Positions 9,385 to 44,628 of a DNA stretch of 64,000 nucleotides are shown here, piece after piece (position 1 is the first letter of the stretch; the number at the start of each line of letters is the position of its first letter). Made by a program: the position numbers and the translations under genes. Source of the DNA: Ignavibacteriota bacterium (GTDB taxonomy: Bacteria > Bacteroidota > Ignavibacteria > UBA10030). Where the stretch lies: NCBI GenBank assembly GCA_963790045.1, contig CAWBMS010000013.1, forward strand, positions 19,085 to 83,084, in the 5' to 3' direction. The notes beneath the pieces were generated by a model. The model did not search any database. It saw nothing but the letters and a program-made list of their open reading frames with translations, and was not told where the DNA came from.

Positions 9385-9782
9385 TGCTCCGTGGACGAAC
9401 TTTGTCTTTTTCCGGATCGATAAAATGCTCTGCGGAACGAGAGAAATGGTGTCGGCAATGACACAAATGGCGTTAGCAACGAGACAAATGACGCTGGCAA
9501 CGACACAAATGACGTTGAGAATGACAGAAATGGTGTCGGGAATGAGAGAAATGGCGTTGGGAACGACACAAATGACGTTGGGAATGAGGGAAATGGCGTG
9601 GGGAATTGAATAAATGCCCCGGCGAAAGGAATACATGGACTGCTGAAAGGAATAATTGTGCTGCCGGAAGGAATAATTGGCGTTGATTATAGTATTTTTG
9701 ACATACTGAACGGTACTTTGGTGCAGGGAATGGAATAATTGGTGATGGTAATGGTGTTTTGGAGAATGGAAAGGGAAAAAAT
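9385..9782 (+). repeat. array 1: about 19 tandem 21-nt units (degenerate minisatellite, consensus GGCGTTGGGAACGACACAAAT)
   Basis: Units start at 9385, 9406, 9427, ... 9700 in exact 21-nt phase, then 9721, 9741 and 9761. Conserved columns are GGAAYGA-N3-AAAT followed by G. All six reading frames are open because the unit has no stop codon. Confidence 0.85.
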
Positions 9783-9889
9783 GAGGTAGTCAAACAATTT
9801 ATGGTTCGAAATAAAAATAGAAATTGACTGGATATAGGCGATGCGTTGTTACAGGAGTTGGCACCAATATTAACTTCTAATAAGCAAAT

Positions 9890-10720
9890 ATGGTAAAATA
9901 TAGTGTAGTTAAAAAAATAGGACGTGGAGGAAATGGGATAGTTTATCAAGTAACAGATGAGAATGGAAATTTTTTTGCTAAAAAGGTACTTGAAAATATA
10001 AGATCAAAAAAAGCATATCAAAGGTTTAAGGACGAAGTAGAGGTTTTATATGGGCTTAAAGAAAGAAAGGGGGTAATTGAAATTATTGATGCTTATTTAC
10101 CTAATCAGTTTTCTAAACATGATAAACCCTATTATGTTATGCCTCTTGGGATAAGTTTGAAAGATTACATTAAAAACTTACACGATGAACAAATAATAAA
10201 TTTAGTGATCGAACTTTGTGATACTCTAGATTTTTTGCATTCTAAAGATATAACCCATAGAGATATAAAACCTGAAAATATATTGGTTATTGACAACAAA
10301 CCAGTCTTCTCAGATTTTGGTCTAGCTAATTTTCCCAAAAAGGTAAGAGTTTCAAGCCAAAACGAAAACATAGGTCCTAAATGGACAATTGCACCGGAGA
10401 TGAAAAGAATCTCATCAACAGCTGAGTTTAAAAAAGCAGATATATATTCTTTTGGTAAAACATTATGGATGCTAATAACCAAACAATGGTGGGGTTTTGA
10501 AGGTCAGTATATTCCCAATAGTTCAATATCGGTTGACAATTACGTCGAAATGATAATAAATAAACCGCACTTAGCCAGTAAATGGTATTATCATTCAATT
10601 GTGCTGTTAAATCAACTTTTAACTGAATCTACTGACAACGACCCATTAAAAAGACCTGATGCAAAATCATTTACAGATAAACTCAAATATTGGTATACTA
10701 GCCTGCGACGATTATTTTGA
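9890..10720 (+). CDS. Hanks-type serine/threonine protein kinase (stand-alone catalytic domain)
   Basis: GRGGNGIVY Gly-loop, AKK lysine, HRDIKPENIL catalytic loop, DFG, APE, DIYSFG and KRPDA are all present. The gene is visibly AT-rich compared with its flanks. Confidence 0.85.
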   Translation: MVKYSVVKKIGRGGNGIVYQVTDENGNFFAKKVLENIRSKKAYQRFKDEVEVLYGLKERKGVIEIIDAYLPNQFSKHDKPYYVMPLGISLKDYIKNLHDEQIINLVIELCDTLDFLHSKDITHRDIKPENILVIDNKPVFSDFGLANFPKKVRVSSQNENIGPKWTIAPEMKRISSTAEFKKADIYSFGKTLWMLITKQWWGFEGQYIPNSSISVDNYVEMIINKPHLASKWYYHSIVLLNQLLTESTDNDPLKRPDAKSFTDKLKYWYTSLRRLF

Positions 10721-11297
10721 GAGAAACCCTTATGAGTGGATTGACGCATTAAAAAGAATTTTTCCTGTTTCAATTCCAAACAGCTGTTCTTGGCAAAAAT
10801 TTGAGGATATTTATAGAATTCTGAAAATATTATGTGAACGTTACGATAATTTAAATCATTGCTTTTATCCTCGTTCAGGGGGTATGGACTTTGATAAAGT
10901 TGAACTTGATAAAACAAAAGAATTTTTGATTATAAACAACAATGAGATAATTAAACCCAAAATTCTATACTTTGAATTTATGAACGATTTTGATTGGAGT
11001 TATTTTAGACTGGAAGTTGAGGAAATTGAACCAATATTTAAAGAAAACTTGCACGAATTTGAAGAAAGAATATTTATTGACAATGAGGGGAATTATCTAT
11101 CAGAAGAATCTCCCAGGTATAGAGAATGTTCAAGATTTGTAAAGGGAAGTTTTCTGTTAACCAAAAAAACTTCAAAGATAAATCAATTATCTGGAAGACT
11201 TGATGCGTATAATGCATTGCATAACAAAATGAATAATACTAAATATAAAGATTTTCTTTTTGAATTGATTAATAAGTTGAAAAGCAGTTCTTCGTAG
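10659..11297 (+). CDS. hypothetical protein; probably the C-terminal module of the kinase gene, displaced by a +1 frame change
   Basis: 212-aa ORF overlapping the kinase 3' end by 62 nt in the +1 frame, with only one ATG before residue ~75. No motif recognised. Same AT-rich composition as the kinase. Confidence 0.5.
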   Translation: MQNHLQINSNIGILACDDYFERNPYEWIDALKRIFPVSIPNSCSWQKFEDIYRILKILCERYDNLNHCFYPRSGGMDFDKVELDKTKEFLIINNNEIIKPKILYFEFMNDFDWSYFRLEVEEIEPIFKENLHEFEERIFIDNEGNYLSEESPRYRECSRFVKGSFLLTKKTSKINQLSGRLDAYNALHNKMNNTKYKDFLFELINKLKSSSS

Positions 11298-11426
11298 GAA
11301 GTTCATCGGGTAAAATCCCGCCCTGCATGTCATCTCGTTTTATCTTGTTCCCAAGTTCTTTTACCCGCTGCGACGGGGCATGGGGCAAGGAGTTAAAATA
11401 AATTACACACAACAAGAAAAGTGAAT

Positions 11427-11768
11427 ATGGAAAAAAGTATTTATCAACTGCGGATCTATGAAGTATCTCCCGATAAAAAGGCCGCGTTTCATAACCGATT
11501 TAAAAATCATGCGCTTCGAATTATGAAAAAATATAATTTCAATCCGGTTGCATTATGGGAAAGTTCTTCCGTTGTAAATTTTGAATTCATTTATATTTTG
11601 AAGTGGCCGGATATTGAAACGATGGAACGGCAATGGAAATTATTTTTAGCAGACGAAGAATGGATAAACATTAAAAGAACAATGGATCAAGAAATCGGGG
11701 AACCGGTGCTCCGGGTAACCAGCAGGGTGCTTGAGCATATCGAATATTCTCCGGCATATTCAATATGA
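11427..11768 (+). CDS. NIPSNAP family protein
   Basis: MEKSIYQLRIYEV...FHNRFKNHALRIMKKY..., a typical NIPSNAP/dimeric alpha-beta barrel N-terminus. The GTG at 11421 is an alternative start. Confidence 0.75.
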   Translation: MEKSIYQLRIYEVSPDKKAAFHNRFKNHALRIMKKYNFNPVALWESSSVVNFEFIYILKWPDIETMERQWKLFLADEEWINIKRTMDQEIGEPVLRVTSRVLEHIEYSPAYSI

Positions 11769-11979
11769 TTTATACTTGATAAAGTTCCAGAGTACATAAA
11801 ATATTGACAACAACGCGCCCAACCAGGCCTATCGGCAGGCAAGGGTTGGATGCAAGTGGGAAAATAAAAAATTATATAATACATTTGATCAAGATAACAT
11901 ATACAATCCACGCACTCGATGATCCACAGGGAACACGGGAAAAATATACAGGAAGAAAAACAAAGAAAAGGTCACAGCG

Positions 11980-12318
11980 ATGAAAACAACAGACAACTTG
12001 TTAGAAGAACCGATGAAATGGTATCATTACATTGCAGGATTTTTTGCGGGAGCATTTTTAACGAATGCGGTTCCGCATTTCGTGAACGGAATTTCGGGAA
12101 ACGCTTTTCCGTCACCATTTGCTCATCCGCCCGGTCAGGGACTTTCATCTCCGTTGGTAAATGTTTTATGGGCATTATTGAATTTGCTTGCAGGATATCT
12201 CCTTTTTAGAGTGAGCAGAATAAATTCAAAACGTAAATCAGGATTATTCATATTTTTTGTAGGAGTGGTACTGATTAGTATTATGAGCAGTATTGTGTTT
12301 GTGGATAAAGTAAAATAA
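11980..12318 (+). CDS. small membrane protein (hypothetical)
   Basis: 112 aa with three hydrophobic segments. Confidence 0.55.
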   Translation: MKTTDNLLEEPMKWYHYIAGFFAGAFLTNAVPHFVNGISGNAFPSPFAHPPGQGLSSPLVNVLWALLNLLAGYLLFRVSRINSKRKSGLFIFFVGVVLISIMSSIVFVDKVK

Positions 12319-12490
12319 ATGTTCTTCTTGTTCCCAAGCTCAGTTATCTGTGAGTGACGGAATGATTTGCAATTAGAAAAATAGTTTTATGAGCGGCATT
12401 GATGAAGAAAAATTAAAAATGTTATATTGTATTTGTATGAACGTTAAGCGTAACAGGAAAAACACTCAACAGTAGAAACTACTCAAGCAC

Positions 12491-12971
12491 ATGAAAAAAA
12501 CATTATTCTTCATCTTCGTTCTTGTGGCATCCTTCTGCGGAGGGTTCGCGTTCAAGACCATTAGTTCAAATCACTCTACTACGGAGACCTCTATGAAAAA
12601 AGTAACGGGCATCGGCGGCATTTTCTTCAAATGCAAAGACCCTAGTAAAGATGACGGAATGGTACCACACTCATCTTGGCCTAAACACAAACCCATGGGG
12701 AGCAACGTTCGAATGGTATGAAGGCGCAGACAGCACAAAAAAAGGACAAACACAATGGACCCCGTTTTCCGAAACGACCAAATACTTTGAACCTTCGACA
12801 AAAGATTTTATGATCAATTACAGGGTAGAAAACCTGGAAGCACTCATTGAGGAATTAAAAAAGAACGGCGTTACCATTGTGGATACTCTTGAAACTGCAG
12901 AGTATGGTAAATTTATACATATCCTTGACGCAGAAGGTAACAAAGTTGAATTGTGGGAACCCAAAGATTGA
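12491..12971 (+). pseudogene. VOC (glyoxalase/bleomycin-resistance) family lipoprotein, interrupted by a +1 frame change near 12650
   Basis: Frame 1 gives signal peptide ...KKVTGIGGIFFKCKDPSK. Frame 2 gives MTEWYHTHLGLNTNPWGATFEW...VELWEPKD. Skipping g12650 produces a continuous VOC fold. Confidence 0.75.
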
Positions 12972-13090
12972 GTTTGAAAAGTTAGGCATCCAACTCAGGA
13001 GCAAGACGACAAAATGATCGACAGGTAAAACGCCTGCCGCAAACAAGTTCGCAATCAGGAAAATTGTTCGATGAGATGCAACATTGAAAC

Positions 13091-13208
13091 ACAGCAGGAG
13101 ACTGTCTTTAAATTACGTTTAACGGTAGGACAGGCATTCTTGCCTGTCCATTATACAACAAAAACACAAACAAGTATTTAAGCAACGATATATATCGTCG
13201 CCTGCTGT
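13091..13208. repeat. nested inverted-repeat element in a convergent intergenic region
   Basis: Outer arms are acagcaggagac (13091-13102) and gtcgcctgctgt (13197-13208), matching 11/12. They enclose a perfect 9-bp hairpin ggacaggca-ttct-tgcctgtcc (13128-13149) and the palindrome acgatatatatcgt (13185-13198). Confidence 0.5.
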
Positions 13209-13249
13209 TTGTTTAAAGATCACGCTTCGACAAGCCCAGTGTGACTTTT

Positions 13250-14143
13250 TCAACCGATAAAAAATCCTACGGCAAGCAACACAGGAGTTGAAATATTGAT
13301 GACGACATTCAATCCCATCGAAGGAATCAAAGCAGGGATATTATTTGCGTTGCGAAATGCTCCTTGAAACGCTATCCACGCGGGAATAATTGTCAGCAAC
13401 GCGAGCAAACTAAACTTCGGCATCAATCCAAACATCACACCAACAACAACCGTAACATACGTCAGCAATAAAAAAGTACCGTAGATAATTGCGCTGGCTT
13501 TCCGCCCAATCGTAATCGGAAAATGTTTTCGCCCGATGGTAATATCTGCATCGACATCAGGAAATTGATTGAGCAGCAGCAAGTCGCTGACTAAAAATGT
13601 CGGAATGAGCGAAGCAACAAATGCAATCCACGTGTAAGAACCTGTTAACGAAAAGTGTGTTCCCATCACCATGAGAATACCGAAACCCAATCCCGGTGCA
13701 ATTAAACAAGAAATCGGATTATACGCCCACCAAACGGTATATGTCACAAGTAAAATTAAACCGAAAAATCCGAGCGGCAGCAACAGCCAGCCGCGCAGCC
13801 AGACAAAATAAAATCCGATCATAACAACCACAACAAGTGACACGATAGCGAGATACAATGTTTGCTTCTTCACTTCAGGATGTGATGGCAATGTTCCGCT
13901 GCCGCCGCTGAATGGTGTTCGCTGCGTTTTGTTGTCGAGTCCGCTGATAAAATCAAAATACTCATTAAACACATTGACGCAAATGTGGCTTGCAACCGCA
14001 CCGATGAGAATTAATAGAATTTGAATCCAGTTGATTTCGTGTGTTTGCCAGTACGCTGTTCCGACGCCGACAGCGACACACGCGGGCGTCAGAATCAAGA
14101 ACGGTACCCTCATCGGGCCAAGCAAGGATTTCAATGTTTGCAT
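13250..14143 (-). CDS. UbiA-family prenyltransferase (MenA-like)
   Basis: 297 aa, about 8-9 TM segments, NEYFDFISGLD Asp-rich motif. Confidence 0.8.
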   Translation of the reverse strand: MQTLKSLLGPMRVPFLILTPACVAVGVGTAYWQTHEINWIQILLILIGAVASHICVNVFNEYFDFISGLDNKTQRTPFSGGSGTLPSHPEVKKQTLYLAIVSLVVVVMIGFYFVWLRGWLLLPLGFFGLILLVTYTVWWAYNPISCLIAPGLGFGILMVMGTHFSLTGSYTWIAFVASLIPTFLVSDLLLLNQFPDVDADITIGRKHFPITIGRKASAIIYGTFLLLTYVTVVVGVMFGLMPKFSLLALLTIIPAWIAFQGAFRNANNIPALIPSMGLNVVINISTPVLLAVGFFIG

Positions 14144-14223
14144 TCGACTCTCCTCTTAAAAGTTTGATTGGTCATTGAATAAATATTTTTCTTGTTCAGA
14201 TACTCACAGTTAAATTTTCTCGA

Positions 14224-14661
14224 TTACACGTTGCTATTCTTCGCTACGTTATTGATATCCACGTTGCGAAAGATTTTCGTTCCGTACCATAGCACGACCG
14301 CTTCTATCACCAACAGCGCACCGAACGATCCTTCATATAAAATTTTCCAGAGAAGCGGAATGGATTGAAAGACAGGAATTGAGATAGAAAAGAAGTGATC
14401 GTAGATATTATAGCATAATGCTGCGCCGATGGTGCCTTGCAGCACGATATTCCCCTGCCGGGCTTTTTCTTTTTCAATCATAAACGCAGCAATAATCGGG
14501 ATGATGGTAAATATGAAAATGATTGGAAGATGATCGGCAACAAAATAGAACGTGCCTAATTTTTCATGTGTGTAAGCATTTCCGGCAACCAAGAGCATGT
14601 GGGCAATCACAAGCCGCGAAATTATTTTCGATATCTTTGCAAGATGTTCTGTGTTGGCCAT
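14224..14661 (-). CDS. membrane protein (hypothetical)
   Basis: Start taken at MANTEHL, because the longer track ORF would overlap the upstream gene. Four hydrophobic segments. Confidence 0.55.
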   Translation of the reverse strand: MANTEHLAKISKIISRLVIAHMLLVAGNAYTHEKLGTFYFVADHLPIIFIFTIIPIIAAFMIEKEKARQGNIVLQGTIGAALCYNIYDHFFSISIPVFQSIPLLWKILYEGSFGALLVIEAVVLWYGTKIFRNVDINNVAKNSNV

Positions 14662-14671
14662 AATTATGTTT

Positions 14672-15820
14672 TTACTTTGAAGACGATATATTTTGAATAA
14701 CGCGCCGTGCGCGCACAAAACTCTTTTCTAACGATGCATCGTAAAACGGCGAAGCCGGATCGAAACTGCCATAGCGAACTCTGCCGATGCTATGAATAAA
14801 CAATTTATTCCCTAAATACATTCCCACGTGAATAATATGCTCCAGTGCTGTACCCTCTGCCTTCCGTCCGAAGAATAATAAATCGCCTTTTTGAAGATTC
14901 TGAAAATCATTTCCAACAGCAATGGCAATTCCTTCTTCCGCTTGCTGGCTTGCATCGCGCGCAAGTTCTTTGCCGTTCAAACGGTACACGGTTTTCGTAA
15001 ATCCGGAACAATCAACTCCTTTAGTAGAAGTTCCTCCCCACAAATATGGAATGCCGAGCAATGCCTTGGCAGATTTTTCAAGGTTACTCGCTGTTAATTG
15101 CCGGCTGTTGTTCCATTCGTCGTAATCCTGTACAAGCGAACTTTGCACATATCCTCTTCTTCCATCGGCAAGCTCGACTGCTGTCCAGCCATTTTTTGTT
15201 TCATGGGATTTGAGTACACACAACGCAACAACATCGCACATAGGAAAAGATTCTATCGACGGTTCCTCACGCACGACGCCGAATGTTTCCGTGACAATAA
15301 CTTTTGGCGCATCATTCCAGATTTTTGTTTCTGCATTATCGAACCGTTGCATTGCTTCTGCCGAAAGCCAGCCAAGATATTTATCCGGCGACTGCACATA
15401 AAAATAATTTTGCGAACGCTTTAATATTTTGACCGTCATACCCATCAGCACTTGCGATGAAAGCTCCGCCGCTTCGCCCGGTTTGGTGCGCATGTTTCCA
15501 ACACTCACGATGATAACACCGAAATATTTTGCGCCAACAGCTTCATCCGGTAACACGGCGATGTGGTCAACAACAGATTTGTGTGTTTTTTCTTTTACTG
15601 TTTCGATGAGTGATTTTTTTGCAGCAGAATTATCAACTTCGCCGCGAAGTTCAATACTTTCTGTCATCTCATTTCCCGTGACATCAAACACTGCCGTGCG
15701 GTGATCCGGTGCATATTTTTGTTGAACTTCATGAAGGATGTTTTCCCACGCCGCCTGCTGTGCCATAAGCGTGAGAGGAATTAGAAGGAAAATAAAAAAC
15801 GCTGCTTTTGTTTTTGTCAT
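14672..15820 (-). CDS. NlpC/P60 (C40) peptidase with SH3-like domains
   Basis: Signal peptide. C-terminal YLWGGTSTKGVDCSGF...HVGMY supplies the catalytic Cys and His. Confidence 0.85.
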   Translation of the reverse strand: MTKTKAAFFIFLLIPLTLMAQQAAWENILHEVQQKYAPDHRTAVFDVTGNEMTESIELRGEVDNSAAKKSLIETVKEKTHKSVVDHIAVLPDEAVGAKYFGVIIVSVGNMRTKPGEAAELSSQVLMGMTVKILKRSQNYFYVQSPDKYLGWLSAEAMQRFDNAETKIWNDAPKVIVTETFGVVREEPSIESFPMCDVVALCVLKSHETKNGWTAVELADGRRGYVQSSLVQDYDEWNNSRQLTASNLEKSAKALLGIPYLWGGTSTKGVDCSGFTKTVYRLNGKELARDASQQAEEGIAIAVGNDFQNLQKGDLLFFGRKAEGTALEHIIHVGMYLGNKLFIHSIGRVRYGSFDPASPFYDASLEKSFVRARRVIQNISSSK

Positions 15821-15896
15821 TCTGTTTTACTTTTCGCAGATATTCATGTTTGCAGAAATATAACAGAAATCTTCAGAGTGTGCAATAAATTATGTT

Positions 15897-17196: not shown

Positions 17197-17250
17197 ATCT
17201 CTAAAGACAACAAGAGCACAGACAAAAAATTCATCTGTGCTGCATTTGAA

Positions 17251-26981: not shown

Positions 26982-27369
26982 ATGATGTATCGACAACTCA
27001 CAATATTTCTTTTCCTTCTTGCTATATCATTTTCATTGTATAGTCAAGAAAAGAATTTATCGACCGACACTGCTGTTACAAATATAAATTTTTTTGTTCC
27101 GCCGTTACCTTTTGAACGGACGGAATCTACCTCTTCCTCCTTCCTTAACACTTATAACAACAAATTATTCTCTGGAATATTTGCGTGCATCTTTAACTGC
27201 ACCGCCTTCGCTCACCGAAAAAACAAATCGTGAACTTCAGGATATCTGGCAACACGAACTTGCCTTACAGAATGAAGGCAAGACATGGAAAACCATTCTC
27301 TCTTCTCTAAAAATGGGGGGAACGGCTTACATGCTTTATGAGCATGTTCGAAAGTATGGGTTGAAATAA
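26982..27369 (+). CDS. small secreted hypothetical protein, possibly split at a T7 run (27089-27095)
   Basis: ORF 26982-27233 carries a signal peptide. ORF 27094-27369 is in the +1 frame and is long and stop-free. Confidence 0.35.
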
Positions 27370-27603
27370 TTATCTGTTCAATTTTATTTTTATCTCTTTG
27401 TTCTTTTGAAATCATTTAGAAAAAAAATTTCGGAACTGAATTAACATATAAATTCTGTGATCTCTTTCTTATTACTTATCTTTTACAATTCTGGAACTAT
27501 CACCTGCACCTTTAATGCCCGGAGGAGTGCCACCATCACGATACGCTGAGCGACATCTCCATGATTGCAGATTTCATGTTAATCCATTTAAGTAATTATG
27601 ATA

Positions 27604-29022
27604 TTATTCTACAGGAAAATATTTTTGAAGAAAACTCATCATTTTATTCCACGAATCAATTTGCGCAGCAGCATTCTCTGAATCCTTACCTCCCACATTT
27701 ATTTGATCATATTTATAATTTACAGTTGGCATTAGATCTGGTCCATAAATAAGATGCCCGGTATTATCATAATTTAAACACACGACTTGATGTTCAAATT
27801 TTAAACTGTCTAATCGATTTTTAATCATTTGGCACATATCATAAGATGGCCATACCTTATCATCTTTCCCTGCAATCAGTAAAACCGGACCGTTAATTTT
27901 TTCAACTTCAATAAGTGCTGGTTCAATTATCGATTTATCCTCAGTGATAATAGGTTCAAAGATTTCACGAAGTACAATCTGTTTAGAATTGGTGATAAAT
28001 TTCCAGAAAAATGAAAAGCCAATATTGCATTTAAGGTAAGGAAGGTCTTTACCATTGAATGTCCATGATGATTTACTGCTAAAACTAGGCCCATTTGGTA
28101 TTCCCTGCCATCGAACATTACTTGGTACGAATGCTATTGCACCTTTAATATCTCTGCGCATCGATGCTACCAATAAAGCAGCTTCTCCACCTTTTGAAAA
28201 TCCTAAAATGACAATCTTATTAGTATCAATGAATTGTTTTTCTTTGGCCCAATTAATTGAATTGAAAAAATATTCAACAGGTATTCTTTCCAGATTCTTG
28301 GGAAGATTATCCATGCCAAAATAACCCAAGGCCAGAACCGCATAACCATGAGAAGAAATTATTTTAGCACGATCGTCCACTTCTTTCATTCCACCACCCG
28401 AACCACCTAACATGATAACAAGCGGCAAGTTATTTTTGTTTTTGGGATAATAGAAGTTTGCAACCATTTCCTTATTTCTTATCACCTCACAATAAATATC
28501 GGGTGTTTCCAACACTAGTTGAAGTTCATTTTTTGAAATGATCTTTCTGTCTACTTCCAATTGAAAATATATCGTATTCAATTTCAGATTCTTTATTTCA
28601 AACGGTAATTCTTCATTTCTATAGGATGGTTTTGTCATTGACCAAAAAATACCCAAAGAATCAGCACCTGAATATGTGGCTGATATCGGTATATCATTAT
28701 TAAGCTGTATTAGTCCTTTGGTGTCGGTCTTAAAGCAGGCAAATGAATAAATAATATCTTCCCATTTTCTACGATAGGCATGTAATGTAATATTTCTATT
28801 TGGCGGTAAATGATCTAGCATGATATGAATGGAAGTGCCCATCATAACTTTATTTGATGGTTCTATTATTATGCAATCGTCACGGTTTGTTGTATCCGCT
28901 TTAATTTTGATAAATTTAGAGAATTCAGAATCTCTTAATTCATCAGACTTTTGCGGGATATTATACGAACAACCTGATACCATCAGGATGGAAGTCAAAA
29001 CAAAATAAATTGTGTTTTTCAT
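27604..29022 (-). CDS. BAAT / acyl-CoA thioester hydrolase family lipoprotein
   Basis: Lipobox LMVSGC; GFSKGGEAALLVAS nucleophile elbow; GKDDKVWPS; TGHLI. AT-rich gene. Confidence 0.7.
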   Translation of the reverse strand: MKNTIYFVLTSILMVSGCSYNIPQKSDELRDSEFSKFIKIKADTTNRDDCIIIEPSNKVMMGTSIHIMLDHLPPNRNITLHAYRRKWEDIIYSFACFKTDTKGLIQLNNDIPISATYSGADSLGIFWSMTKPSYRNEELPFEIKNLKLNTIYFQLEVDRKIISKNELQLVLETPDIYCEVIRNKEMVANFYYPKNKNNLPLVIMLGGSGGGMKEVDDRAKIISSHGYAVLALGYFGMDNLPKNLERIPVEYFFNSINWAKEKQFIDTNKIVILGFSKGGEAALLVASMRRDIKGAIAFVPSNVRWQGIPNGPSFSSKSSWTFNGKDLPYLKCNIGFSFFWKFITNSKQIVLREIFEPIITEDKSIIEPALIEVEKINGPVLLIAGKDDKVWPSYDMCQMIKNRLDSLKFEHQVVCLNYDNTGHLIYGPDLMPTVNYKYDQINVGGKDSENAAAQIDSWNKMMSFLQKYFPVE

Positions 29023-29074
29023 AAATAATCCTATTAAGTAGTTAATAAAATAAACCATAATGACAAAAAAAATA

Positions 29075-29362
29075 CTATTTGGGATTTATATATTTCTTAA
29101 GGTTAATTACATAATTTTCAAATGCTTTTGTTCCTTTGCAGGTAATTGATATGGTAGTATTTGGATAATTATTTTTAAAAGATTTTTTAACTTGAATATA
29201 TCCTGCATCTTGTAATTTCTTTATCTGAATACTAATGTTTCCAGCCGCAGCATTAGTAGATTCTTTTATAAAAGTAAAATTGGCATCGTCCACTGTCATT
29301 AGAATAGAAATTATTGACAAACGAAGCTGCGAATGTAATAAGGGATCTAAATCGTTAAACAT
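29075..29362 (-). CDS. winged-helix transcriptional regulator (HTH_34-like)
   Basis: LDPLLHSQLRLSIISIL...FTFIKE...GNISIQIKKLQDAGYIQVKK matches the HTH_34 pattern. Confidence 0.7.
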   Translation of the reverse strand: MFNDLDPLLHSQLRLSIISILMTVDDANFTFIKESTNAAAGNISIQIKKLQDAGYIQVKKSFKNNYPNTTISITCKGTKAFENYVINLKKYINPK

Positions 29363-29948
29363 GTTCCTTCCTATCTGCCCTATTGAGTAAAATCCCAGGA
29401 ATTATCAATCCTACTAACGCTCCTAACATCATGCTAAACCCATGATAATCCCTGCTAACTAAGAAAGTACCGAATCCAATTAAATTCATTAAGATACCTC
29501 CAATAAATAGCGGTTTGAATTTAATGGATGATCCCGTAACAATCATAGATAAAGCAAACAAAATTAAAAATATTGGTGCAAGGGCATCACCAAGTTGCCG
29601 ACTAAAAAGAAAACCTAAAACCATAAGGTTTACACCCATCGCCCACCCCAACGTTCCTACTATCCTGCCGATTATAGTATTGGGCAGATTATTCTTTTTT
29701 ACTTTTCTCCTATCATATATAAATGTATAGATCGCCCCAAGCGGAAATAAAATAACAGTCCATATTATGTCAAATTTCTTGTATAATCCCGTTAATGAAA
29801 AAACATACTGACTAAAAAATACCGTAAACATCAAACAACCCCACAAAACAATTATGTGGCCGTTTTCTTCAAATCTTTTTTTAGTTTCTTCTATTGTCTT
29901 TGTAATTAACAAGAGACTTCCTTCGGGTGTTAAAGTTGTTTTGTCCAT
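29355..29948 (-). CDS. membrane protein (hypothetical), overlapping the regulator start by 8 nt
   Basis: 197 aa, about 5 TM segments. Confidence 0.55.
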   Translation of the reverse strand: MDKTTLTPEGSLLLITKTIEETKKRFEENGHIIVLWGCLMFTVFFSQYVFSLTGLYKKFDIIWTVILFPLGAIYTFIYDRRKVKKNNLPNTIIGRIVGTLGWAMGVNLMVLGFLFSRQLGDALAPIFLILFALSMIVTGSSIKFKPLFIGGILMNLIGFGTFLVSRDYHGFSMMLGALVGLIIPGILLNRADRKEHV

Positions 29949-30402
29949 TTGTATCCTTTAAATTTAATGAGATATCTATAACAATAAACTAATTAATACT
30001 ATTAACCATAATATAAAAAAGCTCGTTCAATGTCAAGAGTTGTGTAAAAATAATTATGCAGCCAGCAATAATATGGGCTTCTCCTTTTCAGATATTCACA
30101 TCTAGATAAAATACCAGAGCTCCTATATCCAGTTCCTCATCCTTTTTTCTTCATGATGTTTCATCAGGATTCCTGTAGGAAGTCACCGAAAATTTTTCTA
30201 TCTTATTCATAGTCGCAAGTTGCGACAGCCGCATCCGTGCCTTTGGGCATCGGGAGCGGGCATTTGAGACTCGCTCTCCGATGATAAAAAGTAAAGTAGT
30301 GCACGGGAACCTCCAGGACCTTTCTGCAGTTTTTCCCCAGTGTTTCATTTTGCGCCTTCTATCTTTTGCAGCGCGTTTCGTATTTATTTCATAAGGATAT
30401 TT

Positions 30403-37973: not shown

Positions 37974-37976
37974 AGC

Positions 37977-38357: not shown

Positions 38358-38402
38358 CACAATATCTGTTTTTAATCTTTTATTTTAGTACCTTTTTATT
38401 CG

Positions 38403-39218
38403 ATGACAAAGATCATAGCCATAGCAATTTCCAAGGGCGGCGTCGGGAAAACAACGACCGCGGTGAACCTTGCTGCAAGTTTAGCCGTACTGGAAAAACG
38501 CGTGCTGTTGTTAGACACCGATCCGTTCGGTGCATGCAGTTTGTCGCTGGGATTCACACCAGAAAAAATCACCGGCGGCTTGTATGAAGTATTTAATTTT
38601 ATCCATTCCATGCCGCAAGTCATTCATCGGACAGATTTAGCATTTTTGGATTTTGTACCTGCGAACATTACGACTCCCAATGCGGAAGAACGTATTATGC
38701 GCCTTGCGGAAAATCGTACCCTGCTTAAAAATATTTTGCGCTCCGTCGCTCCGCATTACGATTACGTCATCATCGATACGCCGCCGTTCCTTCGCGGCTT
38801 AACGACGAATGCACTTACCTGCGCAGATTCTGTTTTAATTCCAATTCGTTCCGGGCATTTTTCGTTAGAAGGAATAGACAAGCTGATGAAGCATTTCGAT
38901 TGGATTCGAGAAGCAGCAAACAAAACACTGCAGGTAGAAGGTATTGTACAAACTATGTACGAGCCAAATACCAAAGTGACGGAAATTACCAACCGTGAAC
39001 TGCAACTTCGGTATCGAAAATATCTTCTTCGCACCATCATTCCCCGCAATACACATCTTGCTGAAGCAGCATTTTACGGAAAACCTGCCGTGCTGTTCAA
39101 CGCAACATCCAAAGGCACGCTTGCCTATCTCGATCTCGCACAGGAATTAATCGCACGTCATCAAGCAGCAGCACCTGCTGAGCAACCGGCAAACATCCTG
39201 CCGTTGATGCAGGCGTAA
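38403..39218 (+). CDS. ParA/Soj-type ATPase (no adjacent parB)
   Basis: AISKGGVGKTTTAVNLA deviant Walker A; IIDTPP. Confidence 0.85.
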   Translation: MTKIIAIAISKGGVGKTTTAVNLAASLAVLEKRVLLLDTDPFGACSLSLGFTPEKITGGLYEVFNFIHSMPQVIHRTDLAFLDFVPANITTPNAEERIMRLAENRTLLKNILRSVAPHYDYVIIDTPPFLRGLTTNALTCADSVLIPIRSGHFSLEGIDKLMKHFDWIREAANKTLQVEGIVQTMYEPNTKVTEITNRELQLRYRKYLLRTIIPRNTHLAEAAFYGKPAVLFNATSKGTLAYLDLAQELIARHQAAAPAEQPANILPLMQA

Positions 39219-39284
39219 TGCTTTTCTTCGCACGTTGATTTCATTCCACTTTTTTCGTTAATTGAAGTACGCAATAATATCAGC

Positions 39285-39309
39285 GGCAGCGTGTGCTGCC
39301 TATTTTTTT
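39285..39309 (+). terminator. short GC stem plus T-run after parA
   Basis: ggcagc-gtgt-gctgcc followed by TATTTTTTT. Confidence 0.5.
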
Positions 39310-39327
39310 ATCTCCAAGTAATCATTG

Positions 39328-42072
39328 ATGATGCAAGAACTTTCAAAAATTTATACGCCAAAAGATGTGGAAGACAAATGGTATTCTTACTGGGAAGGCC
39401 ATAATCTTTTCCACGCCACCGTTCAAAAGAATAAAAACCCTTTCACCGTTGTCATTCCACCGCCGAACATCACCGGTATTTTGACGATGGGACATGTTTT
39501 GAACAATACATTGCAGGATGTATTCGTTCGATGGAAGCGCATGTCCGGCTACGAAGCATGCTGGATCCCCGGCACCGACCACGCAGGCATTGCAACACAG
39601 AACGCTGTAGAAAAATCTTTAGCAAAAGAAGGCAAGCACCGGTACGATCTTGGACGCGAAAAATTCGTCGATCTTGTCTGGGATTGGAGAAAAAAATACG
39701 GCAGCACCATTATTCATCAGCTTCGCAAGCTTGGCGTCTCGTGCGATTGGGAACGCGAACGCTTTACGATGGATGAAGGTTTGTCGGAAGCCGTGAAAGA
39801 AGTGTTCATCCGATTGTTCGATAAAGGATTGATCTATCGCGGTAAGTACATCGTCAACTGGTGCCCGCAGCATCAAACGGCATTAAGCGACGACGAAGTG
39901 GATCACGAAGAATCGAACGGCAATTTATATCACATTAAATATCCGATTCTCGGCACGAATGAATTTGCAATCGTTGCAACGACTCGTCCGGAAACGATGC
40001 TCGGCGATACGGCGCTATGCGTGCATCCGAAAGACGAACGCTACAAACATCTCATCGGCAAAACCGCCGTGCTTCCCATCGTTCACCGGCATCTGCCGAT
40101 TATCGCTGACGATTATATCGAACTCGGATTCGGCACGGGCATTATGAAAGTAACTCCCGCGCACGATGCCAACGACTTTATGCTCGGGCAGCGGCACGAT
40201 CTTCAGCAAATCAACATTTTAGATGAAGCCGGACATTTGAATACATCTGTTCCCGCACAATATCAGGGAATGGATCGTTTCGAGTGCCGCAAACAATTAG
40301 TAAAAGATTTAGAAGCCGCGGGTTTTCTGGAAAAGATCAAACCGTACGTCCACAACATCGGCAAATGTTATCGGTGTCACACAGTGATCGAACCATGGCT
40401 CTCCGATCAATGGTTTGTAAAAATGCGGCCGCTCGCAGGCCCTGCATTGCGCGTGGTGCACGAAGGTAAAATCAAATTCCATCCTGACCGCTGGACAAAA
40501 GTGTACGAGCACTGGATGACGAACATTCGTGATTGGTGCATCTCGCGGCAAATCTGGTGGGGACATCGCATTCCCGTCTATTATACACCGGACGGCGCTT
40601 ACACCGCCGCACGCAGCGAAGAAGAAGCACGCAAAAAACTTGGCATCGACGCAAGTGTGAAGATCACGCAGGACGAAGATGTGCTCGATACGTGGTTCTC
40701 ATCGTGGCTCTGGCCATTTTCGACGCTCGGCTGGCCAAATGACAATGAGGAATTGCATTACTTCAATCCAACCGATACGCTTGTCACCGCGCCGGATATT
40801 ATTTTCTTCTGGGTCGCGCGTATGGTGATGGCGAACATGGAATTTATGAAAGGCACGCCGGGCAAAGACGGCAAGCCACGAAAAAAAGATGACGATCTTG
40901 TGCCATTCCGCGATGTGTACTTCACCAGCATCATCCGCGATGAACAGGGACGCAAGATGAGCAAGTCGCTCGGCAATTCACCCGATCCGTTAGACGTGAT
41001 CGATCAATACGGCGCCGATGCACTGCGTTTCACAACGGCATATCTTGCACCGCTCGGACAGGATGTGATGTTCTCGACAGAGAAATGCGAACTTGGCAGA
41101 AACTTTGCCAACAAGATTTGGAACGCCGGAAGATTTTTATTAATGAACAAACAGGAAATTCTCGGCGAAAAAGAAATTTCGTTAGAGCAGCTTCCTTCCG
41201 ACTATCTCGATCTTGCCGACCGCTGGATTCTTTCACGTTTGAATCAGGCAGTCAAAACAATGAACGCCGCATTAGATGAATTTCAGGTGAACGAAGCAAC
41301 CAAATTGCTGTACGATTTTATCTGGCATGATTTCTGCGATTGGTATGTGGAACTTGCGAAGACGCGCTTCTACGGCGATGAACCGCAGGAAGTCAAGCAA
41401 GCAACCATCACGCGCGCGCTCTGGATATTCGATCAAGCGCTGCGGTTGCTGCATCCGGTGATGCCGTTTATTTCCGAAGAACTCTGGCAGCATCTCGCCG
41501 ACCGCAAAGAGCAATCGTTAATGCGCGCTGCATTCCCGGTCGTTGATGCGCATTACATCAATCCGGTCATTGAAGAAGAAGTCGGATTTATGATGAAGCT
41601 CATCGATGCCGTGCGCAACATCCGCGGCGAGTTGAACGTGCCGCCCAGCAAACAAATCGATGTATATATTTATTTGCATGGAGAGTTCGGCGAAAAACTT
41701 GCGAACAACGCCGGCTACATTAAAGGTTTGCTCGGCTACATCGAGCGATTGTGCAAAGCGAAAGCAATTCCAAGCTGGCTGCAGGACGGAGAGAAGCCGC
41801 AGCAACACAAAAATTCTGCAAGCGCAGTCGTAGCGGGAACAGAACTATTCGTTCCGCTCGAAGGCATTATCGATCTCGATGCAGAGCGCAAGCGATTGGA
41901 AAAAGAGATTGCCCGCGTGCAGGGATTGATCGACGGCATTGAACGAAAACTTTCCAATCCCAGTTTCATCGAGAAAGCGCCAAAGGAGGTTGTCGATAAA
42001 GAACGCGAAAAGCAGAAAAACATCGCGCTCAATTTGGAAAAGCTCAAGGCCAATCTTGCAGCGTGGAGTTAA
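39328..42072 (+). CDS. valS: valine--tRNA ligase
   Basis: PPPNITGILTMGH (HIGH), KMSKSLGN (KMSKS), C-terminal coiled coil. 914 aa from ATG 39328. Confidence 0.95.
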   Translation: MMQELSKIYTPKDVEDKWYSYWEGHNLFHATVQKNKNPFTVVIPPPNITGILTMGHVLNNTLQDVFVRWKRMSGYEACWIPGTDHAGIATQNAVEKSLAKEGKHRYDLGREKFVDLVWDWRKKYGSTIIHQLRKLGVSCDWERERFTMDEGLSEAVKEVFIRLFDKGLIYRGKYIVNWCPQHQTALSDDEVDHEESNGNLYHIKYPILGTNEFAIVATTRPETMLGDTALCVHPKDERYKHLIGKTAVLPIVHRHLPIIADDYIELGFGTGIMKVTPAHDANDFMLGQRHDLQQINILDEAGHLNTSVPAQYQGMDRFECRKQLVKDLEAAGFLEKIKPYVHNIGKCYRCHTVIEPWLSDQWFVKMRPLAGPALRVVHEGKIKFHPDRWTKVYEHWMTNIRDWCISRQIWWGHRIPVYYTPDGAYTAARSEEEARKKLGIDASVKITQDEDVLDTWFSSWLWPFSTLGWPNDNEELHYFNPTDTLVTAPDIIFFWVARMVMANMEFMKGTPGKDGKPRKKDDDLVPFRDVYFTSIIRDEQGRKMSKSLGNSPDPLDVIDQYGADALRFTTAYLAPLGQDVMFSTEKCELGRNFANKIWNAGRFLLMNKQEILGEKEISLEQLPSDYLDLADRWILSRLNQAVKTMNAALDEFQVNEATKLLYDFIWHDFCDWYVELAKTRFYGDEPQEVKQATITRALWIFDQALRLLHPVMPFISEELWQHLADRKEQSLMRAAFPVVDAHYINPVIEEEVGFMMKLIDAVRNIRGELNVPPSKQIDVYIYLHGEFGEKLANNAGYIKGLLGYIERLCKAKAIPSWLQDGEKPQQHKNSASAVVAGTELFVPLEGIIDLDAERKRLEKEIARVQGLIDGIERKLSNPSFIEKAPKEVVDKEREKQKNIALNLEKLKANLAAWS

Positions 42073-42126
42073 AGCAATCCATCGTAATAAGTTTTTGTAG
42101 CATTACAAAAACACGGTGACGTCACA

Positions 42127-42567
42127 TCATTCGCCCGTTGCTTTCGCCGCGGGTTCGATGCGGTAGGAATGCGTGATTGATGCACTTGCTGCAAGCTGCG
42201 CAGAGACCGAGCAATATTTTGTCCGCGATAACTCTATCGCACGTTCCACATCCTCCGGCTTGATTCCGTCGCCATAAAAGACATACTCGATGTGAATCGT
42301 TTTAAAAATTTTCGGATGATCTTCTGCCTCTTCGCCTTTTACATTGCATTCGTACGCAACCACAGGCGAGCGTTTCTTTTTCAATATCGGAATCACATCC
42401 ATCGAGGTACAGCCCGCAAGCGCTGCAAGCAGCAATTCCTTTGGCGTCGATGCGCCTTCGTGTCCGCCCGCTTCGCCTTTTGTGTCCATCACTATCCAGT
42501 GATTCGAACTCGCTTTTGCCGCAAACGTGTTTCCTTTGAGTTGCCGGAGAAAAATTTCTTTTGTCAT
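42127..42567 (-). CDS. OsmC family peroxiredoxin-like protein
   Basis: 146 aa; LLAALAGCTSMD and KYCSVS cysteine motifs. Confidence 0.85.
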   Translation of the reverse strand: MTKEIFLRQLKGNTFAAKASSNHWIVMDTKGEAGGHEGASTPKELLLAALAGCTSMDVIPILKKKRSPVVAYECNVKGEEAEDHPKIFKTIHIEYVFYGDGIKPEDVERAIELSRTKYCSVSAQLAASASITHSYRIEPAAKATGE

Positions 42568-42741
42568 AGAATCCTTTGCGATAATTTATTTTATCTGTAA
42601 AGTACTATCCCGCAGCACGAAGTGCAACGTTTGGTTGAAGATAAGATGCAGAGATATGGGAAAAGATTCAGCATTCAAGGAACCGATTCCATTGCTTCTT
42701 GCTCTGCCTCCTGCTATATTCTGTAAGAATGAAGGAACACC

Positions 42742-43686
42742 ATGAAAGCACAATCACTCACAATAACAACACCGCACGATTTTCACTTCTGGCGCACCGT
42801 GTACAGTCACGGCTGGAGTTCGCTACCGCCATTTCAGATCGATAAAGAGAACGAGGCGCTCATCAGAATTCTGGAATTATCCGATGGATCGCTCGTTCAC
42901 TGCTCCATCTCTTCTTCTGCGCCAACAAAACTCCGGCTTTCACTTCAAACAAAAAAACAATTGCACACGGATCAACAACAGGAAGTGAAGCAGCAGCTTC
43001 GTTCTTGCTTTCGGTTGGATGAAGATTACACGGAATTCTTTCGCTATGTCAAACGCTTCCCGCAATACCGCTGGATCGCCAAGTTGCACACGGGCAGATT
43101 GCTCTGCTCGCCGTTCGTGTTCGAAGATATTGTGAAGATGATCTGCACCACCAATTGCAGTTGGGCACTGACGGAAGTGATGGTGAATAATTTTACTCAA
43201 TCGCTCGGCAAAAAGTTCGATGGCGATCTCTACAGCTTCCCTTCGCCCGAAGCAATTGCCGGTACAACCGAAACATTCTTGCGCAAGAACATTCACGCCG
43301 GCTACCGCGCGCCCTTTCTGCTGGAATTTTCCGAAAAGGTTGCTTCGCATAAACTCGATGTCGAATCGTGGCGCACAGCAGATTTATCAACGGAAGAAAT
43401 GTACAAACAACTTCGTTCCATTAAAGGCGTAGGAGAATATGCCGCAAGCAACTTGCTGCGATTGCTCGGACACTACGACCGATTGGGATTGGATTCGTGG
43501 ACACGCGGGAAGTTTTATGAACTGCATCACAACGGCAGGAAGGTAAGCGACAAGACCATCGAAAAATATTATGCGACGTACAGGCAAGTGGCGCGGACTC
43601 ATCTTCTGGTTAGAGATGACGAAGCACTGGCTGAACCAGAAGTTTCCGTTTTAAATGATTTCGATATTCCATTACTCTCGTTTTAA
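42742..43686 (+). CDS. DNA-3-methyladenine glycosylase II (AlkA-like, HhH-GPD) family protein; C-terminus probably frame-shifted near 43588
   Basis: HhH motif LRSIKGVGEYAASNLL. Skipping g43588 gives QWRGLIFWLEMTKHW...*, with stop at 43652-43654. This resembles the AlkA C-terminal PWRSYALLHIW. Confidence 0.7.
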   Translation: MKAQSLTITTPHDFHFWRTVYSHGWSSLPPFQIDKENEALIRILELSDGSLVHCSISSSAPTKLRLSLQTKKQLHTDQQQEVKQQLRSCFRLDEDYTEFFRYVKRFPQYRWIAKLHTGRLLCSPFVFEDIVKMICTTNCSWALTEVMVNNFTQSLGKKFDGDLYSFPSPEAIAGTTETFLRKNIHAGYRAPFLLEFSEKVASHKLDVESWRTADLSTEEMYKQLRSIKGVGEYAASNLLRLLGHYDRLGLDSWTRGKFYELHHNGRKVSDKTIEKYYATYRQVARTHLLVRDDEALAEPEVSVLNDFDIPLLSF

Positions 43687-43726
43687 AAATCTCAGATTGT
43701 GTGAAAACTTGAAAAAATACGGTAGT

Positions 43727-43749
43727 CGAGGACTTTAGTCCTCGTTTTT
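43727..43749 (+). terminator. rho-independent terminator
   Basis: cgaggac-ttta-gtcctcg followed by TTTTT. Confidence 0.65.
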
Positions 43750-43803
43750 ATTTTGGACTTCATTGCTCAACGGGAAGTTACCCAGAAGAGCGCAACAACA
43801 AGA

Positions 43804-44076
43804 CTATTTTTTGTCAATTTTTAAATAAGCGCCAAACAATTTATTGGATACTTCGGATTGTGCACCAAACCATTCTGTAAGGATTTTAATATGATCCAAG
43901 GTTTCGTTTCGTTGTTTCTCGTCAACGGTTTTTTCAAAACGACGCGCATATATTTGTAAAGAACTTCCTTTTGAATATAATTCTCCCAAATAATCTTTTA
44001 TTTCGTCGCCAAACAAGAACTCATAATCTTTTGAGTTGTGTAGAAATTTTGTCAATATTTCATCAGAGAGATTCAT
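43804..44076 (-). CDS. hypothetical protein (AT-rich orphan, 90 aa)
   Basis: ORF only; no motif recognised. Lies about 195 nt downstream of array 2 on the same strand. Confidence 0.4.
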   Translation of the reverse strand: MNLSDEILTKFLHNSKDYEFLFGDEIKDYLGELYSKGSSLQIYARRFEKTVDEKQRNETLDHIKILTEWFGAQSEVSNKLFGAYLKIDKK

Positions 44077-44271
44077 AAAACCTGCGACTCTAATTGAAGA
44101 GATATAATCTTTTACTGAGAGAAAGACAGAATAACGTTTTTCATATAAATCGAGTCACCAGCGTAACTTCCATTTCGCCATTTCCCATATACATTTCCCC
44201 AAAAAGCGGCGGATACGGCATTTATGCACCATTTTGGCATTCTCCGTTAAATATATTGGTTTTTTCTGGGT

Positions 44272-44628
44272 ATTTATTCAGTCCGGCGGTCTATTTATGT
44301 CGTCCGTTGATATATAAATACCATCCGGCAGTGTTTAAATACGCTTCAAAAGCGCATTTATTCCTTTCGGATGAATAAAAATACCTTTCGGGAGAGTAAA
44401 AATACGTTTCGTTAGAGCATTTATTCCATTCGGCAGGGTATTTCTGTCGTCCGGCGTGGCATTTCACTCGTTCGGAAGAGCATTCCACTCGTCCGTTAGT
44501 CGATTTCAGTCATCCGGCGAAGCATTTCTCTCGTCCGTTAGTCCATTTCAATCGTCCGGCGGAGCATTCCACTCGTTCGCAAGAGCATTTGAATCGTCCG
44601 TAGGGACATTTTAACTGTCTCGTCCTGA
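44272..44628 (-). repeat. array 2: 17 tandem 21-nt units, same family as array 1 but on the opposite strand
   Basis: Plus-strand units run atttattcagtccggcggtct ... atttcactcgttcggaagagc / attccactcgtccgttagtcg / atttcagtcatccggcgaagc ... in exact 21-nt phase (17 x 21 = 357 nt). Their reverse complement reads NNNNNNCCGGACGANNGAAAT. Confidence 0.85.

Follow-up and report, generated by a model that had tools for sequence, protein, structure and literature searches.

BrickBuilt elements of Porphyromonas gingivalis are built of 23-nucleotide (nt) units with a conserved leader and tail and IS5-type terminal inverted repeats (GAGACCTTTGCA / TGCAAAGGTCTC); there are ~19 copies per genome, they are confined to P. 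gingivalis and P. gulae, and segments of them show promoter activity (Klein et al., 2015; PMC4596501). They are the closest described element to a pair of repeat arrays found in a 64,000-nt stretch of DNA (“the window” below) from an uncultured Ignavibacteriota bacterium (Bacteroidota; Ignavibacteria; UBA10030; GenBank assembly GCA_963790045.1, contig CAWBMS010000013.1, positions 19,085 to 83,084 of the forward strand). Both kinds of element occur in Bacteroidota, in intergenic positions, as spacer-less, head-to-tail series of imperfect units of about two helical turns; both have arrays of up to ~20 units (up to ~23 in BrickBuilt) with conserved and variable columns, and both lie near insertion sequence (IS) elements and beside variable loci. 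The window arrays differ in having a 21-nt rather than a 23-nt unit, in a gradient from one unit subtype (“alpha”) to another (“beta”), and in lacking a common leader or tail. They are non-coding 21-bp minisatellites, so far known solely from this uncultured Bacteroidota lineage, and are classed here as a variant of the bacterial intergenic minisatellites; a new element class is not demonstrated. As to what they do, a phased leader acting at the DNA level, architectural or protein-binding, is put forward tentatively, on the strength of modeled DNA shape and a conserved core.

Other kinds of element also offer points of comparison. MIRU elements of Mycobacterium reportedly consist of 46-101 bp units within operons, with small open reading frames (ORFs) overlapping the flanking stop and start codons. 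The window arrays resemble them in their orientation with transcription, their position between genes, their short ORFs and their growth or shrinkage by whole units, and differ in their 21-nt units, their setting in accessory islets, and mini-ORFs that do not touch the start of the downstream (“cargo”) gene. A further comparison is with phased A-tract curved DNA near promoters and with the sites where xenogeneic silencers such as H-NS, MvaT, Lsr2 and Rok nucleate. Here the likeness lies in helically phased A-tracts, strong predicted curvature and a location beside AT-rich acquired genes; the difference is that no silencer has been identified in this case and that the curvature of the window arrays is modeled only. 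To our knowledge, a long array of exact period built on a sequence-specific 12-nt core has no counterpart among curved elements, and we know of no H-NS/Lsr2/Rok-type silencer in the Bacteroidota. In plasmid oriV iterons and in the parC and sopC centromeres, protein is bound along one helix face of the repeats; the window arrays are likewise composed of many ~20-bp direct repeats at whole-helical-turn spacing, but they are chromosomal and have neither a DnaA box nor an AT-rich unwinding element.

Two arrays in one register

When autocorrelation was computed in sliding fashion at every lag from 5 to 69, only two regions of the entire 64-kb window stood out, with lag-21/42 values of 0.75 and 0.68 where the background is 0.27 ± 0.05; these are the places where a preliminary description of this DNA had put two 21-nt arrays. 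Direct reading in the 21-nt frame gives an unbroken register in both: there are no phase-breaking indels across ~17 units per array, even between units less than 50% identical. These two are the intergenic copies of the array within the window, and their parts are as follows:

9385 to ~9783, + strand: array 1, core-bearing over 9427-9678 and then fading in phase.
9385..9426, + strand: lead-in of array 1, two degenerate in-phase units, TGCTCCGTGGACGAACTTTGT and CTTTTTCCGGATCGATAAAAT, from frame reading.
9427..9615, + strand: alpha block of array 1, nine units of the form G-N7-(G/C)-A-A-Y-G-A-N3-AAAT, with a 63-nt higher-order repeat.
9616..9678, + strand: beta block of array 1, three units of the form N6-8-G(A/G)AAGGAATA-N2-T, AAGGA then ATG or TTG, resembling ribosome-binding sites.
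9679..9783, + strand: tail of array 1, five degenerate units that keep the 21-nt phase, from frame reading and autocorrelation.
44607-44272, - strand: array 2, read in the 21-nt frame.
44440..44607, - strand: alpha block of array 2, eight units of the form N7-C-G-R-A-Y-G-A-N3-RAAT, with a 42-nt higher-order repeat.
44272..44439, - strand: beta or mixed block of array 2, eight units, comprising CCGAAAGGAATAAAT, CCGAAAGGTATTTTT and two alpha-like units.
44077..44271, - strand: unrepeated tail from array 2 to the downstream orphan gene, with scattered GAAATG motifs and without significant similarity to the array-1 tail.

The shared core, GRAYGA-N3-RAATG, has 11 occurrences in the window, five in array 1, six in array 2 and none outside, against 0.72 ± 0.84 in shuffled sequence; a two-unit version of it gives 11 matches (0 expected), and a three-unit beta probe matches once in each array and nowhere else in the window (0 expected). 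The shared core described earlier is thereby upheld, as is the claimed order of subtypes: in both arrays an alpha block (nine units in array 1, eight in array 2) leads into a beta block (CGAAAGGAATA / CGAAAGGTATT type) and then to an ORF on the same strand, a kinase gene after array 1 and a 90-aa orphan after array 2. The earlier count of ~36 units with conserved columns holds in part. The same columns are indeed kept between the arrays; the core, though, is recognizable in only ~26-28 of the 36 units (~17 alpha and ~9-11 beta), the other 8-10 being degenerate. The unit that had been placed first in array 2 (44628-44608) is not a repeat unit at all, being mostly the right terminal repeat of an IS3-family element: that repeat, CAGGACGAGACA (44628-44616), ends at 44616, outside the array, and array 2 therefore begins at 44607.

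Longer periods fit both arrays better than 21 nt does. Tandem Repeats Finder gives 82% matches at 63 nt in array 1, versus 76% at 21 nt, and 78% at 42 and 63 nt in array 2, versus 64% at 21 nt; from these higher-order repeats it follows that the arrays grew by amplification. Beyond the units themselves, the leaders and tails of the two arrays have nothing in common, their alignment scores falling inside the shuffle range. No flanking inverted repeats of ≥16 nt at good identity surround either array, and the BrickBuilt terminal repeat (≤2 mismatches) has no match within 4 kb of them, with nine in the window versus 4.9 expected. A MITE (miniature inverted-repeat transposable element) was rejected for want of both kinds of terminal repeat at the arrays. 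CRISPR was likewise rejected: the units run head-to-tail without spacers, and there is no cas gene among the window ORFs examined.

Common descent and probable constraint on the core

At 16 of 21 positions, spacer included, the unit that opens the alpha block of array 1, GCTCTGCGGAACGAGAGAAAT, is the same as a unit of array 2, GCTCTTGCGAACGAGTGGAAT. Taken with the same block order, this match argues for common descent, and on sequence grounds the two arrays are paralogous, as had been proposed. Within each array, similarity is partly due to recent amplification, so that the informative test of constraint is the comparison between arrays. Between-array identity is 0.75-1.0 at columns 1, 11, 13, 14 and 18-21, with column 10 kept as a purine and column 12 as a pyrimidine, and 0-0.5, the chance level, at columns 2-8 and 15-17; the conserved columns are grouped in three blocks (permutation P ~0.03). 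In the derived units of array 1, ~5 of the eight variable spacer positions have changed (5-6 changes in all) and the core has 0 changes, a distribution with a probability by chance of ~0.02 by hypergeometric estimate.

One possibility against which these figures bear is that the arrays are neutral or selfish minisatellites, generated by slippage or unequal crossing-over in loosely constrained islet DNA, with the core as an ancestral remnant. The better fit of the 63-nt and 42-nt higher-order repeats than of the 21-nt period is what this would predict. It accommodates less well the clustering of the conserved columns, with spacer columns at chance identity between arrays, the placing of all array-1 ancestral-to-derived changes outside the core, and the absence of any phase-breaking indel over ~17 units per array. 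An origin of this kind is possible, and nearly as likely as the DNA-level leader favored here. The evidence that core and spacing are selected is accordingly moderate, not overwhelming. The earlier argument had been for selected sites as opposed to a slippage product: constraint on the core columns (P ~0.02-0.03) is probable, and the amplification signature in the higher-order repeats tells against the other half of the claim.

Predicted curvature and a possible DNA-level role

The conserved columns amount to two short A-tracts (GRAAY, RAAAT) about one helical turn apart, in a unit of two turns. When curvature was predicted with a dinucleotide wedge model, the arrays accounted for 24 of the 25 highest-ranking 146-bp windows of the 64 kb, with an end-to-end ratio in these of 0.71-0.84 versus 0.964 ± 0.029, and both arrays exceed ~97.5% of column-permuted, equally periodic controls in predicted curvature. 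A ranking of windows that needs no model, by how strongly A-tract steps recur at 10.5 nt, puts the arrays in the top eight positions; relative to the permuted controls they lie in the 5-7% tail.

The phased DNA-level leader tentatively proposed here would work as follows. Each array stands at the head of a small accessory islet, as its upstream portion or leader, and is oriented toward an AT-rich foreign gene; it grew by amplification of blocks of two to three units, and the 12-nt core (AYGA-N3-RAATG) and the exact 21-nt spacing were retained throughout. With a pair of short A-tracts per unit, spaced by about one helical turn, the units would bend the DNA in phase, showing the same motif on one helix face, and could offer a platform for cooperative binding by a nucleoid-associated or regulatory protein. 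Once bound, the protein would modulate the transcription that runs from the islet promoter to the foreign gene, and would probably damp or insulate it; the binding itself, the passage of transcription across the array and an influence on expression are all things we infer. It is a rather improbable extension of this that the arrays serve as operators for a silencer-like nucleoid protein, which would form a one-faced filament on the bent DNA and keep AT-rich cassettes of recent acquisition, a toxic defence kinase for example, silent or insulated.

Several observations weigh against a DNA-level leader. The higher-order repeats make part of the within-array similarity plain recent amplification, and there are just two instances, with no conservation in relatives by which to gauge purifying selection over time. 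The predicted curvature comes from a crude dinucleotide wedge model and, against periodic controls, reaches only the 2-7% tail; a different 21-nt array in a sister species (L122, described below) is not predicted to be curved. There is no DNA-binding gene common to both loci, and no binding protein has been identified. Lastly, array 1 lies downstream of the best promoter candidate and would therefore be transcribed, which makes a role at the RNA level possible.

Two homologues of the array-1 kinase (73-74% identity) have 128-205 nt of upstream sequence with no array and no periodicity, conservation with the window upstream being limited to ~35 nt before the ATG. The array therefore does not travel with the kinase across Bacteroidota and is instead a lineage feature; that these homologues do without one is also in keeping with a neutral minisatellite.

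Curvature as a general trait of 21-nt arrays was considered and rejected, since the sister-species array (L122), the array at L086 and others are not predicted to be curved.

Coding and RNA-level alternatives

Two other explanations make the arrays sequences that are, or were, read as RNA. In the first, they would be what is left of a decayed heptad-repeat gene, in the frame AAT-Gxx giving N-x-x-x-(N/D)-(D/E)-x and, for beta units, x-L-P-x-G-I. One frame does translate both arrays to similar Asn/Asp/Glu heptads (NGVGNDT-like in array 1, NAPPDD* and NGLTDER-like in array 2, xLPKGI in beta units), and the degenerate core also retrieves real acidic heptad coding repeats elsewhere. The acidic-heptad likeness arises because the RAY-GAN of the core reads Asn/Asp and then Asp/Glu, and this reading is in turn why a loose core pattern retrieves genuine coding repeats in other phyla. 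Array 2, on the other hand, has stops in every frame, with three in-phase TGA codons in the Asn-frame; in array 1 that frame lacks a start codon and begins immediately behind a stop. The third-codon positions T21, A18 and G9 are among the most conserved columns, the first and second positions of codons 2-4 being the most variable. Across array 1 a public assembly annotates a 110-aa “gene”; neither this ATG-frame ORF, which matches only itself, nor the Asn-frame translations have homologues among 5.8 billion proteins or in Pfam. For all of these reasons a decayed repeat gene was rejected, and the idea is close to refuted.

In the second, the array would be a long 5' untranslated region, its initiation-like units (GGA or AAGGA, an A-rich spacer, then AUG or UUG) forming a chain of mini-ORFs or an unstructured, purine-rich platform on which ribosomes or an RNA-binding protein would tune translation or stability of the cargo mRNA. 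Both arrays are co-oriented with the downstream gene, and array 1 has a promoter-like site upstream of it. Gene starts in this organism are preceded, at 4-8 nt, by Shine-Dalgarno sequences (AAGGA, AGGAG), and beta units read GAAAGGAATAAATG or GGAAGGAATAATTG; both arrays have a stop-start junction, GAA-TAA-ATG, at the alpha/beta boundary. Array 1 RNA is, moreover, unstructured (folding z = +0.46 versus shuffles). Yet the GGA is not invariant in alpha units, where column 10 is R and column 9 is G or C. The mini-ORFs are wholly different and unrelated between the arrays, and the last of them stop more than 100 nt ahead of the cargo ATG, with no overlap with the start codon; bacterial initiation at a downstream ribosome-binding site is in any case independent of upstream AUGs. 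Array 2 has no promoter detectable by consensus scan, and is now severed from upstream sequence by the IS element. Rfam, run at the gathering threshold on the entire window, returns only a thiamine pyrophosphate (TPP) riboswitch and two tRNAs, with no match to the arrays. On balance, an RNA-level leader is unlikely.

Some particular forms of RNA or promoter element were rejected. A stable RNA structure fails on the array 1 z-score and on the lack of a fold common to both arrays, the value for array 2 (z = -2.5) being due to a few local hairpins in its beta block; a GGA sponge RNA of CsrB/RsmZ type fails on the same array 1 value, the variable GGA and the lack of an Rfam match. A MIRU-like minisatellite is incompatible with 21-nt units and with mini-ORFs that end more than 100 nt before the cargo ATG. 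Sigma-54 promoters (TGGCAC-N5-TTGC, the tails being read by eye) were dismissed since the -24-like motifs come without the GC of the -12 element, and a consensus scan found no sigma-70-like sites inside the arrays.

The accessory islets

Each array heads an accessory islet, strain-variable in the case of islet 1 and species-variable in the case of islet 2. The main features are:

9183..13243, + strand: islet 1, 4,061 bp, strain-variable, with a promoter-like site, a hairpin, array 1, kinase, NIPSNAP, a small membrane ORF and a glyoxalase-like gene.
9226..9254, + strand: candidate sigma-70-like promoter, TTGACA-17-TAGAAT, 11/12 match, inside islet 1 and directed into array 1.
9332..9354, + strand: hairpin of 9 bp whose T-tract is poor, separating the promoter-like site from array 1.
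9890..11297, + strand: Ser/Thr kinase, 468 aa, with a C-terminal domain of no assigned function, frameshifted into ORFs 9890-10720 and 10659-11297.
43804..44076, - strand: 90-aa orphan ORF, 31.5% GC, the cargo of islet 2.
44616-45948, - strand: complete IS3-family element, 1,333 bp, with orfA at 45500-45907 and orfB at 44691-45542.

In L131, a contig of the same metagenome that is 99.5-99.9% identical to the window on either side, position 9182 is joined to 13244 via 15 unrelated nt, so that the 4,061 bp are present in one strain and absent from a co-occurring one. The GC content of islet 1 is 36.2%, versus 43.8% for the window. Its ends have no target-site duplication or terminal inverted repeats, there is no recombinase gene inside, and immediately to the left of the junction divergence between the two strains is unusually high. 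Given these features and the 15 unrelated nt, replacement of the islet by homologous recombination fits better than transposition.

The kinase had been described as starting at 9890 on the same strand as array 1, which is so, except that the ORF there is only the N-terminal part of one frameshifted 468-aa gene; the two ORFs overlap at 10659-10720, and the gene is intact, as P0010, in another contig from the same sample (L121). The frameshift may represent a recent pseudogene, a sequencing error or strain variation. The product matches Pfam Pkinase (5e-31) and, in PADLOC, mad6 (1e-36) and PD-T4-6 (1e-31), the latter two being only suggestive, not diagnostic, because they cover the kinase domain. 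Its family (~465-475 aa) is patchily distributed in Bacteroidota, with members in Cyclobacterium, Arenibacter, Saccharicrinis, Flavobacterium, Elizabethkingia and Pedobacter. Among the nearest homologues, one context is between Thoeris ThsB_TIR and Shedu SduA_C genes; another homologue adjoins a group II intron reverse transcriptase and an IS66 element. To judge from their neighbors, these are defence-island or mobile contexts.

The orphan of islet 2 forms a single-member 90%-identity cluster and has no Pfam, NCBIfam or PADLOC match. A sister species (~86% nucleotide identity) has genes of 173 aa and 308 aa between the same glycosylase and TP_methylase genes; in the window this place is taken by the orphan, array 2 and the IS element, which makes it a species-variable islet. 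With the kinase at 30.1% GC and the orphan at 31.5%, against 43.8% for the window, and with both in strain- or species-variable DNA, the earlier statement that the downstream same-strand ORFs are AT-rich and apparently foreign is supported, and both are accessory genes. The dispensability of both settings would equally be expected of neutral arrays.

Beside array 2, orfB of the IS3-family element matches NCBIfam transpos_IS3 (2.5e-74) and orfA matches HTH_Tnp_1. The terminal inverted repeats are ~25 bp and imperfect, TGTCTTGTCCTG...GTTGACA (left, from 45948) and TGTCTCGTCCTG...GTTGACA, with a GTT target duplication at 44613-44615 and 45949-45951. The element is inserted right at the upstream edge of array 2, which before the insertion lay ~90 nt past the TP_methylase stop; Logan short-read unitigs stop at 44645, as expected for a repeated element. 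The right end of the IS resembles the alpha core CGGACGAGAGA, by an end-like target preference or by chance.

This insertion suggests another possible function, that the arrays are target sites for recombination or transposition, a landing pad that attracts IS elements or mediates gain and loss of cassettes. IS3-family elements, e.g., IS911, insert beside sequences like their own ends, and here such an element, cleanly flanked by the GTT duplication and with an end resembling the unit core, is inserted precisely where the first unit of array 2 begins; both arrays are at synteny breakpoints, and a two-subtype array in Candidatus Kapaibacterium adjoins an IS21 end. There is, however, a single IS event in the window and no integrase or transposase common to both loci, and islet 1, lacking a duplication, inverted repeats and a recombinase and with 15 unrelated nt at its junction, is better explained by homologous recombination. 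A landing pad seems quite unlikely.

The gene content of the islets (kinase, NIPSNAP, glyoxalase-like and orphan genes, with no Rep domain) led to rejection of an iteron or replication origin. A partition centromere was rejected as well: the sole ParA-like ATPase (38403-39218) lies 5 kb from array 2 among conserved core genes, and there is no ParB.

Some features of the surroundings may be mentioned. A divergent 11/12 sigma-70-type site (9169-9141, - strand) is suitably placed for the TPP riboswitch (8988-9111, - strand), which heads an operon of a TonB-dependent receptor, thiamine pyrophosphokinase and an SSS transporter; from this placement it follows that the organism uses such promoters. 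This promoter, together with the frequent Shine-Dalgarno sequences, suggests that the organism is not a typical Bacteroidia-type member of the Bacteroidota. A contig from the same sample (L121:1-1706) matches the window only to the right of 8774, within the receptor gene, and to the left of that point carries RbsD_FucU and a 302-aa ORF with the N-terminus of the receptor; the break is either a second structural variant or an assembly chimera. A third AT-rich islet at 27000-30000 (33% GC) contains a BAAT/acyl-CoA thioesterase-like hydrolase, a winged-helix HTH_34 protein and a 197-aa ORF, and the window autocorrelation shows no 21-nt array in it. Where the window has only a 110-nt spacer (47605-47714), between adenylosuccinate lyase and NAD synthase genes, the sister species encodes a HicA toxin together with a partner of 68 aa (L122:9309-9697).

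In the sister species there is also a different AT-rich 21-nt array, ATTCCGGAAATCTTTTAAGAA, at L122:5710-5940, whose higher-order repeat is 42/63 nt. At a break in synteny, it occupies the interval between plsY and an RHS/T9SS gene that is AT-rich (37% GC) and starts 330 nt downstream of it; five samples (L122, L123, L124, L126, L127) have it in identical form. Its position counts in favor of the proposed DNA-level leader.

Related arrays elsewhere

A probe consisting of a three-unit alpha core gave more than 117 matches in a collection of 185,579 species genomes. None of the matches listed has the alpha-to-beta architecture; they include acidic heptad coding repeats, a multi-copy Endozoicomonas element, a Prochlorococcus locus and various Bacteroidota arrays. 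Given this heterogeneity, the alpha probe is too unspecific to define a family and was rejected for that purpose. The retrieved Bacteroidota arrays are no evidence of homology, because the search pattern forced their core. The beta probe returned 107 arrays from metagenome contigs, none with alpha units in phase, although the scan did not return the window's own arrays, and nine unrelated matches from viral contigs. In blastn searches, both arrays with their flanks had no match among phages and plasmids, and the array core is absent from the sister species. The blastn and Rfam searches proposed at the outset thus agree in matching the arrays to no known element, and turned up no relatives in phages or plasmids either.

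Heterogeneous 21-nt arrays, on the other hand, are common in many phyla. Loose 21-nt cores recur convergently across phyla, both as coding heptads and as non-coding satellites, and a degenerate core alone is therefore not homology. Such widespread occurrence, and the absence of a homologous array from the sister species and among the matches listed in public collections, are both points in favor of neutral minisatellites. The preliminary suggestion of a general element class is largely not sustained: no further copy of the core turned up in the sister species, among the genome matches listed, in the metagenome scan (which did not return the window's own arrays) or in phages and plasmids, the kinase homologues are array-free, and so is the third islet.

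Among the arrays retrieved, a few have structures of their own. The Bacteroidetes metagenome-assembled genome (MAG) Umea1_bin-0439 has arrays of TACATTTGGATGAGCCAAATG (L013:4506-5038 and L030:6007-6701), present at least twice in a genome and enclosed by inverted repeats of 121-176 nt that are 88-93% complementary: a BrickBuilt-like MITE with a 21-nt minisatellite. On the chromosome of Endozoicomonas sp. ALC020 (L007, L009-L011, L014, L015, L018 and others) there are at least 26 loci of (GAAGCCGGGAATGACGAGAAT)n, with 3-8 units and conserved flanks, …GGCAGTATGGTTCTGGTGG…GATTCCCGCCTTCGC before the array and …GTTCCCACGCCGGAGAGAGTTTTGCGACACCC after it, which look like a multi-copy mobile or REP-like element. 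Many Prochlorococcus genomes (L008, L016, L027, L028 and others) share a conserved locus, (GATCGTGTGAATGAGAAGAAT)n, of 3-8 near-identical units whose copy number varies with the strain. The two-subtype 21-nt array of the Candidatus Kapaibacterium MAG (L040:1700-2300) consists of 14 copies of CTCTTTGAAACGACCGAAATG followed by eight of CTCAACTGGAAGACCGAAATG, and directly adjoins repeated terminal motifs of the IS21-family element.

Implications

Even neutral arrays would be of use as markers of flexible loci and of breakpoints in synteny; they also cause assembly breaks and give rise to spurious gene calls. If the 12-nt motif is protein-bound, its eight- to nine-fold repetition provides a handle for isolating the binding factor. 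Were the arrays to act as silencer operators, this lineage would have in “array plus cargo” a recurrent means of domesticating foreign genes. If the core and the two-turn spacing reflect protein binding or bending, the arrays would represent a compact cis-acting architectural module on horizontally acquired genes, including defence genes, in a phylum in which the control of foreign DNA is poorly understood, and would be of note for that reason.

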